The translations under genes were made by a program, and so were the position numbers. 10,143 nucleotides of DNA. It comes from Pseudomonadota bacterium. Its GTDB lineage: Bacteria > Bdellovibrionota > FAC87 > UBA2466. The notes beneath the pieces are model-generated. The model ran no database searches and had not been told where the DNA came from. It saw only the letters and a list, made by a program, of their open reading frames with translations. How positions within the stretch are numbered: the first letter of the stretch is position 1; each line of letters starts with the position of its first letter. The stretch is from assembly GCA_043767805.1 (NCBI GenBank), contig JAYUGC010000150.1, positions 1 to 10,143 of the forward strand, read 5' to 3'. Below are positions 5,455-10,143 of the stretch, in pieces.

Positions 5455-6942
5455 ATGGGCCTCATGCCCCGTGTGTCTAAAAAAACCGCCGGCGCGGTTC
5501 TGCTTTTCTTTCTTTGCACCCTCAATCTGACGTCGGGCGGAAGGCTCGGCAGCGTCGATGCCGGCTCTCAGTTGCAAGCGGCGACCCTGCTTGCCCGCAC
5601 GGGACAACTAGGCGCGGTGGCGCCTCCCACCTTGGAACCCGTCTTGTGGGTTCCAAACGCCAAAGGGCTTTTCTATCAATGCCACGACGTGGGCAATCTC
5701 TTCTTGATGTTTCCCGCGGCACTCTTGGGAAGCTCGCTGTCCAGGGCGACCACGGCCGAGATATTTGAGAACCCTCCCCCCTTGAGTCGGGTGGCGGTAT
5801 CGCTCACTTACGGTTTGTTCGCGGCTCTCGGCTGCTTTTTTCTCTTTCTCTTCTTCTGCCGGCTCTACGATTCACGCCGGGCTTTCCTTCTCACTCTCGC
5901 TTTCGCCTTCACCACGTTTTTCTGGGCTTACACCAAGACTGCGTGGGACGTGATGGGCTCCGCGGTCGGCGCGTGCTTCGTTCTCTATGCCTCGGCTCGC
6001 GCGATGACCGCTCCCGTCTGGGAGAATAAAGACTTCGCGCTCTTAGGTCTCGCGGTCGCCATCGCGGGCTCATTCCGGTTCTCGCTCTTTCCGTCCCTCT
6101 TGCTCGGGGTGGCTGCTCTCGGTTTTCTCTACCGCGACCGCCTGAAGGTCGCGCCGGTCGCGGCATTTTTGACGACGGTACTAGCCACCATGCTGCCGGC
6201 ATTTGCCTACAATCTCGTTCGCATGGGAAACCCGTTTCAGCCGGCCACCATGGCGCCGCAGTTCGCGACGACGAGCGACCTCCAAGGCAATGTCTTCTAT
6301 GGCCTCTACGGGCTGTTGCTGTCGCCCAATAAGGGCCTATTCTGGTTTGCCCCCGTTTTGCTCTTACTCTTCGCGCTGCCTTGGCACTGGAAGCAGCTCC
6401 CCAAGTGGGCGCGCGACTTGGCGCTCTCGATGGGAGCGGTGACTTTCAGTTATCTTTTGCTCGTCTCTAAAATTCGCAACTGGGGAACGTTCGGCTGGGG
6501 ACCAAGGTACTTGGTACCCGTGCTTCCTTTTCTCTTTTTCTTTTCGGCGGTGAGTCTCGTCGAGCTCTGGCGAAAGTACCGCGCTCCGCTCGTGGGTCTC
6601 TTGGCGCTTTCCTTTTGCCTCAACCTCGCTCCGGTTTTAGTCAATTGGAGCCTTGCGATTGCGGACCCGCAAACCTCGAACGCTCATCTTTTCTTTCCCT
6701 ACCAGCATCAGGCGATCTGGAAGGGGCTGTTTAATGGCCTGAGGGGAATTCCCCTCGCCGCCCCCGCGGAAGTTTTGGCGGATCCGGTGAGAAGCGCGGG
6801 CGCGCGCTTTCCCGATCTCTGGCTAGTCCGTCTTATGGAGACGTCGCGGGCCGGAAACTTCGCGGGGCTCACCGGAGTTTTCTTGCTTCTCTTTGGGATC
6901 GGGGGCTCGCTCGGCCGTTTACGAGCGGAGCGACGCGAATAG
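5455..6942 (+). CDS. Polytopic membrane protein, probable GT-C fold glycosyltransferase-like (ArnT/PMT-related)
   Basis: 495 aa with roughly 10-12 hydrophobic segments. It has an Asp in the loop after TM1 (GSVD), plus 'LLSPNKGLFWFAP' and 'WGPRYLVPVLP' motifs, which recall lipid-carrier-dependent glycosyltransferases. The CDS is solid; the function is inferred. Confidence 0.65.
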   Translation: MGLMPRVSKKTAGAVLLFFLCTLNLTSGGRLGSVDAGSQLQAATLLARTGQLGAVAPPTLEPVLWVPNAKGLFYQCHDVGNLFLMFPAALLGSSLSRATTAEIFENPPPLSRVAVSLTYGLFAALGCFFLFLFFCRLYDSRRAFLLTLAFAFTTFFWAYTKTAWDVMGSAVGACFVLYASARAMTAPVWENKDFALLGLAVAIAGSFRFSLFPSLLLGVAALGFLYRDRLKVAPVAAFLTTVLATMLPAFAYNLVRMGNPFQPATMAPQFATTSDLQGNVFYGLYGLLLSPNKGLFWFAPVLLLLFALPWHWKQLPKWARDLALSMGAVTFSYLLLVSKIRNWGTFGWGPRYLVPVLPFLFFFSAVSLVELWRKYRAPLVGLLALSFCLNLAPVLVNWSLAIADPQTSNAHLFFPYQHQAIWKGLFNGLRGIPLAAPAEVLADPVRSAGARFPDLWLVRLMETSRAGNFAGLTGVFLLLFGIGGSLGRLRAERRE

Positions 6943-7284
6943 GAGCGCCCAACCGACGAGAAAACAAACCCCGCCGATGGGAGTAATGGCTCCGAGCACG
7001 CCGGCCTGAGAGAGCGCCAGGGCGTAGAGACTGCCGCTAAAAATGAAAATACCAACGAGAAACGCCCAACCGGCGTATCTAAGCAGCGAGGTCTCTCCCC
7101 GCATCAAAAGAATCGCCACAAGAGCCAGCGCGAAGGTGTGAAAGAATTGGTATTCCACCCCCGTCTTGAAGATGGCTAGATATTTTTCGTCGAGTCTGGC
7201 TTTCAAGGCGTGAGCCCCGAAGGCGCCGAAAGCCACCGAAAGAAAACCGGTTACTGCCGCCGCACTGAGAAAGAAATTGGCCAT
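6919..7284 (-). CDS. DUF423 / YgdD (TMEM256) family small membrane protein
   Basis: GAFGAHAL, TGVEYQFFH, IFSGSLY and GAITPIGG motifs. ATG at 7284 is preferred over TTG at 7293. Confidence 0.93.
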   Translation of the reverse strand: MANFFLSAAAVTGFLSVAFGAFGAHALKARLDEKYLAIFKTGVEYQFFHTFALALVAILLMRGETSLLRYAGWAFLVGIFIFSGSLYALALSQAGVLGAITPIGGVCFLVGWALLFASLRS

Positions 7285-7332
7285 AGCGCTCAAAATACTC
7301 GTGAGCGTTCATGGGTCAAGCAAGTTCCCGCG

Positions 7333-7391
7333 TCGCTCCGCACGTTCGATCCGGGGCGGTCACTGGTTGCTGGAGCTCGTACGAGGAAATC
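7333..7391 (+). repeat. Dispersed ~60-bp repeat, copy A
   Basis: 7346-7391 (TCGATCCGGGGCGGTCACTGGTTGCTGGAGCTcGTACGAGGAAATC) matches 10008-10053 at 45/46. Weaker similarity extends left to ~7333. Confidence 0.95.
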
Positions 7392-7476
7392 TATTAGATC
7401 TTCGCCTGAAGGGCGCCTCGTTAACGGCAGTCCGATCTCAGTGAGAAGTTCGTGAGGCTTAGATCAAAATAGCCTA

Positions 7477-7536
7477 CCTCGGTCCAGCATCTAGCAACCA
7501 GTGACCGGCCCGGATCGAAACGCGCGAGCAGCGAGG
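7477..7536 (-). repeat. Dispersed ~60-bp repeat, copy B (inverted, more diverged)
   Basis: The reverse complement of 7493-7518 (TCGATCCGGGcCGGTCACTGGTTGCT) matches copies A and C at 25/26. Its 5' flank CTCGCTGCtCGCGCG matches CTCGCTGCcCGCGCG in copy C. The unit is bounded by CCTCG...CGAGG. Confidence 0.9.
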
Positions 7537-7543
7537 AGAGCGC

Positions 7544-8515
7544 TTAGCCGTGGCGGCGCTGAGAATCAGCGGTCGCGGGCGTCGATCGATTCATCATGTA
7601 CCACCGAATCGTCCGCGCCAAACCTTCACGCAACGACGTCTTCGCCTGGAAGCCGAAATACGCGAGCGCCCGGCTGACATCGAGCCGCCGCCGAGGCTGC
7701 CCGTTCGGCCGAGAGGGATCATAATGAATCGCGCCGGTGAAGCCGACATGGCCCGCGACAATGGTGGCCAGCTCACGAATGGAAAGCTCTTCGCCCGAGC
7801 CCAGATTTACCGGCTCGCGGCCGTCGTATTTCTGCGTTGCCATAACGATGGCTTCGGCCGCGTCTTCGACGTAGAGAAATTCTCTCGTGGGAGAGCCATC
7901 GCCCCAAAGCACGATCTCTTTCGTCCCCGACTCCTTGGCCTCGAGGCATTTGCGCACGAGCGCCGGAATCACGTGAGAGCTTTCCGGATCGAAATTGTCT
8001 TTCGGTCCGTAGAGATTCACGGGCAAGAGATAGACGGAATTAAAACCATATTGCTCGCGGTACGCCTGCCCCTGCACGAGCATCATCTTCTTCGCGATGC
8101 CGTAGGGAGCGTTCGTCTCTTCCGGATAGCCCGACCAGAGATCGGCTTCCTTGAAAGGCGTGGGCGTGAACTTGGGGTACGCGCAGATGGTGCCGATGGC
8201 GACGAACTTCTCGACTTTGAAAAGACGCGAGTACTCCATGAGCTGAAGGCCCATGATGGCGTTGTCATAGAAAAAACTTCCCGGGTTCTTGGCGTTGGCG
8301 CCGATACCGCCGACCACCGCCGCGAGATGAATGATCACCTCCGGCTTGTGTTGCGTCAGCAGGCGCACGATGGCGGCGCGATCCCGCAGGTCGTACTCTT
8401 TCGAGCGCGGCACGAAAACGTTGTTACAACCCTGCTCTTTCAAGCGGGCCACGACGAACGAGCCGAGAAATCCGGCTCCCCCAGTAACGATGATTTTCTT
8501 TTTGGTTAGGTCCAT
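7544..8515 (-). CDS. fcl: GDP-L-fucose synthase (GDP-4-keto-6-deoxymannose epimerase/reductase; extended SDR)
   Basis: [34 protein letters not shown] (YxxxK), PVNLYGP, SHVIPAL and [15 protein letters not shown]. Start set at ATG 8515 ([12 protein letters not shown]). Confidence 0.93.
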
Positions 8516-8663
8516 GTTCTTTGCGCAAGAAACTCGTAGAGGCTCATCCATCTATCGGCATCCGAGCGCCAAAACTCCAGCAAAGAGCTGACCACGATTC
8601 AAGAAAGATTCTATGGCGTCAGGGCTCCGTTGGCGAGGCCTGCGCCTTCCCGCCCGAGTGGGC

Positions 8664-8669
8664 TATAAT
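8664..8669 (+). promoter_or_regulatory. Candidate sigma70 -10 box for the wzt-like gene
   Basis: Perfect TATAAT in a GC-rich divergent intergenic region, 37 nt upstream of ATG 8707. No convincing -35 box. Confidence 0.4.
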
Positions 8670-8706
8670 TAGAAAGACCTCCAACCCTCCTTTCCCCGAA
8701 ATTCTT

Positions 8707-9984
8707 ATGCACCCAGCCATCAAGGTTCAGAATGTTTGGAAGCACTTTCGACTTGGCGCGCAGTTCACGAGCAACTCGTCGCTCAAAGAATCGATTGCGG
8801 ACGCCATCATGGCGCCGGTGCGCTATTCCTACCGCCGGCTAAAGGGGCTGCCTCCCCCGCCGAAGCGCACGGGAGAGACGATCTGGGCGTTACGCGACTT
8901 GTCGTTCGAAGTGCAGCCTGGCGAAATCGTCGGCATCATCGGAAGAAATGGCGCCGGCAAATCTACTCTATTCAAAGTCTTGAGCCGGATCACTGCGCCA
9001 ACGCGCGGCAGAATCGACATGCACGGCCGGGTGGCGAGCCTTCTCGAAGTGGGTACCGGTTTTCACCATTACCTCACCGGACGCGAAAATATTTATCTCT
9101 CGGGCTCCATCTTCGGAATGCGCATGGCGGACGTGAAAAAGCAGTTCGACGCCATCGTGGAGTACTCCGAAATCGAGAAGCATCTGGACACCCCCGTAAA
9201 ATTTTATTCGAGCGGCATGTACGTCCGCCTGGCCTTCGCGGTCGCGGCGCATTTGAATCCCGACATCATGCTGGTCGACGAGATCCTAGCGGTCGGCGAC
9301 ATGGCCTTTCAGAAGAAGTGCCTGGGCACTTTGAAAGCGACCGCGCGCGAGAACCGCACGGTCTTATTCGTCAGCCATAGCATGCAGGTCATCCGCCAGC
9401 TCTGCACGCGAGTCATCCACATCGAGAACGGCGTCATCCGCATGGACTGCCCCACGGAAGTCGGCATCACCGATTACAACAAGTTCCTGCAAAAGCCGCG
9501 CGATCTAACGACGGAAGGAAAGCTTAACCGGATCCACCGCAGCACGGGCGCGGTGCAGGTTCAGAACTTCGTCTCGAGAAATACCGATGAGACCGAGTGC
9601 TGGCGCTTCAAGCACGCGGAAACCATTCTTCTCGACTTGTCCTATAAGGTCACTCGCGACGTGCCTTCTCTTGCGATCTTTCTGACTATCCGCTCGGTCA
9701 TCTCGGGTGACGTAATCACCACCGTGTTCGAAGGACTCTCGGAAGACCCGGTGAAAGCCGGCACCTCGGCCCGCGCGGAATTGAAACTTCCGAAGATCGC
9801 GCTCCGTCCCGGCGATTACTCGCTCAGCTTACAGATGACCGATCTCTCGCGCGAGAAAGTCTTCGACATCATCGACGATAATGTGGGATTGCCTTGGCTC
9901 TCGATCGATACGGCTCAAGGCGATCTCATCGCAACGGAAGGCTACGTAAGCCTCAATTCGTCGGTGAAGGTCAACGCCGCCTAG
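8707..9984 (+). CDS. wzt: Polysaccharide/O-antigen export ABC transporter ATP-binding protein with a C-terminal carbohydrate-binding (Wzt_C-like) domain
   Basis: IWALRDLSFEV, Walker A GRNGAGKST, SLLEVGTGF, signature YSSGMYVRLAFAVA, Walker B LVDEILAVGD, H-loop VSH and a beta-rich C-terminal extension (LRPGDYSL). Start set at ATG 8707 (MHPAIKVQNVWK). Confidence 0.92.
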   Translation: MHPAIKVQNVWKHFRLGAQFTSNSSLKESIADAIMAPVRYSYRRLKGLPPPPKRTGETIWALRDLSFEVQPGEIVGIIGRNGAGKSTLFKVLSRITAPTRGRIDMHGRVASLLEVGTGFHHYLTGRENIYLSGSIFGMRMADVKKQFDAIVEYSEIEKHLDTPVKFYSSGMYVRLAFAVAAHLNPDIMLVDEILAVGDMAFQKKCLGTLKATARENRTVLFVSHSMQVIRQLCTRVIHIENGVIRMDCPTEVGITDYNKFLQKPRDLTTEGKLNRIHRSTGAVQVQNFVSRNTDETECWRFKHAETILLDLSYKVTRDVPSLAIFLTIRSVISGDVITTVFEGLSEDPVKAGTSARAELKLPKIALRPGDYSLSLQMTDLSREKVFDIIDDNVGLPWLSIDTAQGDLIATEGYVSLNSSVKVNAA

Positions 9985-9990
9985 CAGCCT

Positions 9991-10053
9991 TCTCGCTGCC
10001 CGCGCGCTCGATCCGGGGCGGTCACTGGTTGCTGGAGCTAGTACGAGGAAATC
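9991..10053 (+). repeat. Dispersed ~60-bp repeat, copy C
   Basis: 10008-10053 is 45/46 identical to 7346-7391. It starts ~7 nt after the wzt stop codon. Confidence 0.95.
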
Positions 10054-10143
10054 AATTTGCCAGCGCCTCACCGCGGATCAAGCCGCGCCCGGGAAAGGAC
10101 CAGTCGGTGATGGCCGATTCGTCCATCGCCAACGCCACCCGGG
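10052..10143 (-). CDS. Possible 3' end of an unidentified gene entering from the right edge
   Basis: A minus-strand frame is open from the window edge: ...RVALAMDESAITDWSFPGRGLIRGEALAN*, with TGA at 10052-10054 and GC-rich third positions. It is too short to identify. Confidence 0.4.
   Translation of the reverse strand, partial: RVALAMDESAITDWSFPGRGLIRGEALAN

Follow-up and report, generated by a model that had tools for sequence, protein, structure and literature searches.

What kind of element do the short intergenic repeats beside fcl and wzt represent, and what could have spread them? The initial annotation of the window, i.e. the whole stretch of 10,143 nt analysed here, which is contig C150 of the source assembly G000 (4.52 Mb, 204 contigs), had described three copies (A, B and C) of an unassigned ~60-bp repeat and had proposed a lineage-specific REP/MITE-like element, a recombination site or a structured 3'-UTR RNA.

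Repeats in the window

The repeats are real, and their positions and similarity could be reproduced from the sequence. The 26-nt core occurs exactly at 7346 (+) and 10008 (+) and with one mismatch at 7493-7518 (-), copies A and C are identical at 45 of 46 nt, and every one of the three copies is intergenic. Copies B and C share an end that is longer than the core and begins 8 nt behind the stop codon of fcl (7544-7546, -) and 7 nt behind that of wzt (9982-9984, +), respectively, as had been claimed, and Pfam backs both gene labels. The unit itself, however, has to be redrawn. Copies A and B, opposed across 59 nt, are the arms of one element of ~200 nt, and copy C, 93 % identical to copy A over 58 nt, is a lone arm (Table 1). 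As DNA, the complete element folds into a single rod (-64.2 kcal/mol; z -7.43; 0 of 200 shuffles).

Table 1. Coordinates of the repeat element, its parts and the flanking genes in the window
Feature	Position	Strand	Remarks
Complete gene-less fold-back element (A + B)	7327..7536	.	between DUF423 gene and fcl; full-length matches elsewhere in G000
Arm A	7327..7401	+	sequence, alignment; arm HMM E 3e-17
Arm A, decayed GC cap	7327-7343	+	TTCGATCC box next
Arm A, heptamer units	7358-7384	+	one unit with 1-nt deletion
Arm A, inner core	7382-7401	+	
Variable centre	7402..7460	.	itself an imperfect stem-loop, GTTAAC near apex
Arm B	7461..7536	-	core, heptamer units, TTCGATCC box, terminal cap; arm HMM E 1e-17
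Arm B, cap	7523-7533	read on +	G...A loop
Arm B, inner core	7461..7481	-	18/21 nt identical to core upstream of four-helix-bundle gene at G001:C159
Copy C, lone arm	9992..10056	+	truncated within core; arm HMM E 5e-14
DUF423 membrane protein gene (flank)	6919..7284	-	PF04241; start per own gene caller
fcl-like NAD-dependent epimerase gene (flank)	7544..8515	-	PF01370
wzt ABC transporter ATPase gene (flank)	8707..9984	+	PF00005 + PF14524
Possible 3' end of convergent gene	10052..10143	-	putative; stop codon within arm C; 29 codons, leaves contig

No family or plasmid match was obtained for the putative 29-codon frame at the contig end. The possibility of an assembly artefact, raised in the initial annotation, was followed up in DNA sequencing runs. 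Contigs of run X1 hold exact pieces corresponding to 6600-7372, 7346-7490, 7462-7878 and 7853-10028, and in runs X2 and X3 the parts 6600-7372 and 7462 onward are matched exactly; all three runs come from a single study, X1 is possibly the source itself, and the stretch is covered by overlapping pieces, none of which spans the whole. Since the X1 pieces overlap across A and B and up to C, an artefact is unlikely. A fourth run, X4, derives from a related population and has no cover over the copies; no contig joins across them, so that it is uninformative.

Family structure in the source genome

Searching G000 with the arm HMM gave 67 matches at E<=1, whereas the reversed genome gave none, so the repeats are not due to chance. 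Those with E<0.2 group into 39 loci, to which a remnant on contig C168 was added, giving the 40 loci considered here. Paired inverted arms are found at 25 of the 39 loci and span 144-207 nt at 24 of them; the span at the remaining locus is 355 nt because a MITE, carrying a 9-bp duplication, sits inside that copy. The other loci hold lone arms or internally deleted hairpins.

From the outside in, an arm of 70-85 nt consists of a GC mini-hairpin cap, the TTCGATCC box, 7-base units (four, GG-started, varying in number and degenerate) and an inner core of ~21 nt that ends in GATCT, and the centre of the element is a variable stem-loop. The core pairs with fixed mismatches, which recur in G000 and in the sister species G001. 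The 20 full copies show a mean identity of 75 % and a maximum of 87.5 %, i.e. the family is not young, while the centres show a mean pairwise identity of 62 % as compared to the 75 % of whole elements. In the main G000 subfamily, the arms within a copy are no more alike than arms of different copies (p 0.64). The family in G000 looks old and possibly orphaned.

Placement, gain and loss of copies

With our own gene caller (4093 genes in G000), 34 of the 40 loci could be classed as 11 convergent, 20 tandem and 3 divergent junctions, where intergenic length would predict 5.8, 16.8 and 11.4, respectively (p 0.003). The 17 orientable tandem copies lie in sense (6) or antisense (11) to transcription. 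Every locus is situated between protein genes or at a contig end, none is in a 23S rRNA gene and there is no rRNA match. The neighbours include housekeeping genes, such as purH, holA, thyA and xseA, and the copies are placed singly and in both orientations, not in cassette arrays. Among 68 flanking proteins from 34 regions, 19 of which have no Pfam family, no transposase, integrase or homing-type nuclease domain was found. An Rfam search, suggested earlier, returned nothing above threshold in the window and only sub-threshold miRNA hairpin matches at the loci of six other copies. The copies in the window have no terminator-like tail, in agreement with the U-tail reported as missing.

Occupancy of orthologous junctions differs between the species. 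For only 2 of 32 gene-less loci of the related family in G001 (see below) does the orthologous G000 junction hold a family copy; at 5 of 16 junctions inspected, the genes of G000 touch or overlap each other, and 4 of the 16 hold unrelated repeats. Conversely, the flgL-csrA junction, filled in G000, is empty in G001, G003 and G005 and is not syntenic in G002, and there is no copy behind the fcl and aminotransferase genes of G001, where the next gene differs. Copies have therefore been gained or lost. The two shared sites were considered as proof of ancestry and rejected, because the unrelated repeats at 4 of the 16 junctions mark such junctions as hot spots.

A BLAST-type search with the element found no match in 40 relatives and missed the G001 family later found by a model. 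The heptamer pattern occurred at chance level in five relatives, and exact patterns were absent from metagenome contigs and GTDB. The cap pattern gave 117 loci in GTDB and the heptamer pattern two metagenome loci; under four HMMs, only the plain heptamer arrays L226 and L227 among these matched, both of which lack the core and, among their listed ORFs, any four-helix-bundle gene. A gapped core pattern gave three matches in 38 genomes, all in G000, and a search of 401 genomes from the phylum with the core pattern gave 15 matches in G000, 3 in G001 and six single matches vs 3 in the control. Among the genomes searched, the family is confined to one genus. Being dispersed, intergenic, palindromic and without an Rfam family, it broadly corresponds to the lineage-specific REP/MITE-like element first proposed, apart from the ~60-bp unit.

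A related family and a gene-bearing copy in a sister species

A sequence-only model built from the 20 G000 copies alone (59 candidates scored per genome) found matches in a single one of the 37 other genomes of the order, that of G001, which belongs to the same genus. The six matches (best E 3e-5) fall at five loci, four of which are true members and one of which (L108) is not. These G001 copies are hairpins of 100-137 nt with the same inner core, with arms of 6-base units and without a terminal cap; in place of the caps, 22 of 31 G001 copies have a central GNNA loop. There are 22 core matches in G001 vs none in the control, and at least 32 gene-less hairpin loci, of which 32 were analysed. 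Reciprocally, an HMM of the G001 copies placed its 11 best G000 matches, and 16 of 19 at E<=1, on loci of the family (best E 3.6e-8, as compared to 0.41 for the best reversed-genome match). Within a G001 copy, the arms are more alike than between copies (p 0.007).

One further G001 copy encloses a gene. On contig C159, two arms 466 nt apart surround a PF05635 match; they form a perfect 31-bp inverted repeat that encloses an intact 119-aa ORF of the PF05635/TIGR02436 family (23S rRNA intervening-sequence protein, a four-helix bundle), related to the Xanthomonas pentamer of PDB 2GSC. The control for the arm-pattern search that found this locus gave 58 matches and is uninformative, the pattern reading nearly the same backwards. 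Just inside the upstream arm lies the core, which shares 18 of 21 nt with the arm B core, and with the G000-only model this arm ranked first among eight four-helix-bundle loci, at a modest E of 0.002. A short BLAST of the C159 arms against G000 gave nothing significant. The protein has seven distant plasmid relatives and no relative in viral contigs.

The G000 assembly holds no four-helix-bundle gene with heptamer arms, and the G000 copies contain no ORF. Its only four-helix-bundle gene (C186) has other, hexamer-type repeats, upstream only. Among the loose ends listed that lie on the element, there was no sign of an unassembled cassette. The cognate cassette has thus been lost from G000, lies unassembled or never existed there. 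More generally, 30 four-helix-bundle loci were fetched and 26 scored, leaving out four that had already been viewed; strong inverted arms surround the ORF at only 4 of the 26, and many of the other loci show one-sided repeats next to a tRNA gene. In G000, a second repeat family (19 matches at ~12 loci, none in the reversed genome) uses a hexamer that is found in inverted arms around the four-helix-bundle genes G001:C72 and G006:C61. A third arm type, present around the gene at G001:C1, recurs by eye without a gene at the G001 mscS junction; the orthologous junction in G000 holds the family described here.

Search for a mobilizing enzyme

Like a REPIN doublet, the element has inverted arms which, together with the spacer, fold as a hairpin (z -7.4), and paired arms prevail (25 of 39 loci). 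A conserved GTAG/GTGG foot, which defines canonical REPs (PMC6006769), is absent: the family ends listed comprise one GTGG, one GTAG and three GCAG, the remainder being varied, with no GTAG/GTGG (CGTC) foot conserved. The sole GTAG is part of the host flgL stop region and is also present at the empty G001 site. G000 harbours a RAYT gene with its own, different repeat in 61 regions, i.e. working-looking RAYT-REPIN material, as well as another RAYT-like gene and one more Y1 gene. None of these three Y1 genes is flanked by arms of the family, the nearest copy being 23 kb off or on another contig of the 204-contig assembly, in which gaps are possible. Although the element functions in the manner of a REPIN, it falls outside that class.

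At cross-species empty sites no target-site duplication was seen, a comparison limited by the ~80 % protein identity of the two species, and the element ends are ragged, without a shared terminal sequence. A shared outer end motif was tried as a candidate and not established (12 of 66 ends in G001 vs 5.5 % in the control; 10 of 71 in G000 vs 11 %). Neither an IS630 transposase nor DUF559 was found in G000, and of its three GIY-YIG genes none is on a contig with a family copy. The assembly gave no reverse transcriptase match, even though it contains the end of a group II intron.

DNA or RNA character

Mismatches on the reference strand are balanced (81 G-T vs 74 A-C), and a double change is seen in only 2 of 26 consensus pairs. 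The caps are polar: a c(G-N1-3-A)g hairpin is present on the outward strand of 26 of 46 arms and on the other strand of 1 of 46, against a background of 2.1 %, counts that are not independent since the copies are kin. There are 16 different cap loop sequences, some of them non-GNRA. GCGNAGC/GCGNNAGC mini-hairpins are described as far more stable as DNA than as RNA (PMC13037366). Taken descriptively, as a count over kindred copies, the polar caps are suggestive of DNA-type hairpins.

Origin of the family and alternative explanations

Taken together, the G000 copies are probably gene-less miniatures of a four-helix-bundle (PF05635/TIGR02436) cassette and probably spread in the form of hairpins of single-stranded DNA, the protein and host enzymes having the roles proposed below. 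The four-helix-bundle fold may resemble that of Avd, the accessory protein of diversity-generating retroelements. This explanation starts from the anatomy of the element, its dispersal, the inner-core homology with G001, the one gene-enclosing G001 copy and the differing occupancy of junctions. Gene loss would have left an arm-core-loop-core-arm structure, a strand of which would fold into a hairpin of single-stranded DNA when the genome is replicated. The pentamer of the four-helix-bundle protein may then recognise the arms or the core in trans, host enzymes would place hairpin copies at gene junctions and leave no target duplication, and purifying selection would retain copies mainly behind stop codons. 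The putative link to a cassette is drawn from a core of ~21 nt and a single cassette found in the sister species, and the direction of descent may be the reverse, i.e. the gene may instead have entered an existing hairpin.

It is tempting to speculate, although we hold this wider proposal to be rather doubtful, that four-helix-bundle genes and tandem-repeat arms make up a transposase-free mobile system parallel to RAYT-REPIN, in which each protein would serve its own arm type and spread gene-less hairpins; in this genus, the 21-nt core would have been kept while the arms switched between 6- and 7-base units and gained DNA caps.

The main rival to a miniature cassette is an orphaned REPIN, i.e. 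a REP-like doublet of GC mini-hairpins with a long paired spacer, whose RAYT (HUH Y1) was lost, is unassembled or acts in trans, the G001 gene being a passenger. Inverted doublets do outnumber lone arms, no target duplication was seen, the caps are of the DNA type, REPs likewise lie near stop codons (PMC3733652) and can outlast their transposase (PMC6006769), and G000 holds functional-looking RAYT-REPIN material of another family in 61 regions. We nevertheless consider this origin unlikely, given that all three Y1 genes lack family arms in their flanks, that the ends have no conserved GTAG/GTGG foot and that it is the inner core, not the cap, that is conserved between the species. A host-kept RNA element, whose 3'-end hairpins would terminate or stabilise transcripts, or have them cleaved by RNase III, and which spread by recombination, would account for the excess of convergent and the shortage of divergent junctions, and IVS stems are indeed RNase III substrates (PMC4990558). 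It is improbable, as copies occur in both orientations and at divergent junctions (3 of 34 loci), G-U strand bias and a terminator tail are missing, double changes are rare and sites are not conserved between the sister species; the structured 3'-UTR RNA of the initial annotation is not supported either, given the two orientations, the divergent junctions and the balanced mismatches. An effect on RNA may still arise as a by-product.

Still less probable is a classical DDE-type MITE in the style of ERIC, Correia or RUP, moved by an IS transposase. Its 144-207 nt, inverted ends, internal deletions and position next to stop codons would suit such an element, but the ends are ragged and share neither a terminal sequence nor a target duplication, no IS630 was found in G000, no transposase was found among the 68 flanking proteins, and the true MITE inside one copy, with its 9-bp duplication, provides a direct contrast. 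Least probable of all, in our judgement, are single-stranded recombination sites (attC-like or dif-like) for a tyrosine recombinase, even though the fixed mismatches within the core pairs recur in both species. Sites of the attC type have RYYYAAC...GTTRRRY ends and stand in tandem cassettes of one orientation. No such ends are present in our sequence, which bears out the missing attC core noted earlier, and the copies stand singly, in both orientations, beside housekeeping genes and outside cassette arrays, so that the neighbouring genes lend the proposed recombination site no support.

Relation to known systems and significance

ERIC, Correia and RUP MITEs share with the G000 element its size, palindromic fold, internal deletions and gene adjacency. 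In contrast to them, it has no TA duplication and no fixed ends, and no IS630 transposase was found. With REPIN/RAYT systems (PMC3116915) and GTAG/CGTC REP dimers (PMC3733652), as described there, it shares inverted-doublet hairpins and lone-arm remnants, an intergenic, lineage-specific occurrence near stop codons and the lack of a visible target duplication; the comparison with the 28 REP families of PMC3733652 is at the level of their general description. It differs in having neither conserved foot nor cognate RAYT, in its arms of 70-85 nt made of tandem units and in the conservation of the inner core instead of the end.

Two further systems come close. The ORF-bearing 23S intervening sequences (IVS; S23p) of Coxiella and Leptospira (PMC4990558) have stem-forming inverted arms and tandem short repeats as well, and the G001:C159 copy carries the same protein family in its loop. 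The Coxiella IVS is described as having terminal inverted repeats, tandem heptamers and an ORF of the PF05635 family; IVSs are excised by RNase III, and their protein, for which that source gives no known function or catalytic activity, is probably not made in Coxiella (PMC4990558). Unlike an IVS, the G000/G001 family lies outside rRNA, and its gene-less copies, dozens in number, occupy mRNA gene junctions in either orientation. Intergenic heptamer repeats of Xanthomonas and Nostoc (PMC4692102) and of Beggiatoaceae, Cyanobacteria and Bacteroidetes (PMC4679880) are likewise formed by about four 7-base units, often in inverted pairs, close behind stop codons and rarely between divergent genes, and their origin is left unexplained in these reports. 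In G000, by contrast, the units are degenerate, and a conserved core and centre lie between them. A term search of the main texts of PMC4692102 and PMC4679880 found no mention of four-helix-bundle genes, and no literature tying such genes to dispersed gene-less hairpin repeats was found in a literature search confined largely to open-access journals.

What is new here, as far as the sequences of two species can tell, is a core that is kept across species while the repeat arms are replaced. The case bears on both the function of PF05635/S23p (PMC4990558) and the origin of intergenic hairpins built from 6-7-base repeats (PMC4692102), questions that these reports leave open. A single repeat family is ordinary in itself; this one is dispersed and tied to a PF05635-type gene, and comparing two species tells the conserved core apart from the arms, which are exchangeable; this gives a sharper test case and a defined protein-DNA pair for testing. 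If the transposase-free reading is true, the 21-nt core would be a candidate recognition site.

Flanks of the fold-back element

The genes that flank the fold-back element in the window, a DUF423 gene and fcl, are separated by this element only, whereas the corresponding interval spans 3.5 kb in the same-genus sister species (G001) and holds pilin-like and other genes. Close to the contig's right-hand end, a short stretch was matched by many contigs of other organisms, with a high summed depth, in all four sequencing runs; the 29-codon frame located there had no match in family and plasmid searches.

Other repeats and mobile elements

One copy of the fold-back family carries an inserted MITE of ~160 nt with inverted ends of ~30 bp and a 9 bp direct repeat, near-identical copies of which are present on C18 (98.7 %) and C44 (96.8 %) of the source genome (G000). 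The same genome harbours a RAYT gene flanked by 26-bp inverted repeats, which form a dispersed doublet family of their own (61 regions), and a family of 25-nt perfect-type palindromes with a GCGAAGC centre (19 regions). By eye, a related repeat of ~90 nt was also noted at two places, one upstream of the third Y1 gene and one on C168.

Judged by eye at loci of G000 (L024) and many relatives (L283-L292 and L356-L379), genes for the four-helix-bundle protein (PF05635/TIGR02436; 23S rRNA intervening-sequence protein) often directly adjoin tRNA genes, with repeat arrays in between, and many of them carry a CGCTCCC-type motif ~45-60 nt upstream of the start. G003, the genome of another relative, has 15 such genes in total, including back-to-back pairs on C52, C36 and C135 (L314, L316 and L317).

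A group II intron, represented by its 5' part (Rfam RF02005, E 2e-35), was located ~100 nt away from a fold-back family copy, while no RT was found in the G000 assembly. The same intron start recurs at the ends of contigs C133 and C86, indicating that the group II intron is multicopy and collapsed in G000.

Positions of the features discussed, by genome and contig
Feature	Genome	Contig	Position	Locus
DUF423 gene-fcl interval	G000	C150 (window)	7293-7544	
DUF423 gene-fcl interval	G001	C20	33432-36933	
Stretch with 29-codon frame	G000	C150 (window)	10059-10128	
MITE	G000	C74	1553-1712	L068
RAYT gene	G000	C66	16797-17198	L001
25-nt palindrome (example)	G000	C170	21493	
25-nt palindrome (example)	G000	C151	6735	
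Related ~90-nt repeat, upstream of third Y1 gene	G000	C86	60-260	L002
Related ~90-nt repeat	G000	C168	95-190	
Four-helix-bundle gene	G000	C186	24500-25090	L024
Group II intron, 5' part	G000	C156	3240-3589	L080
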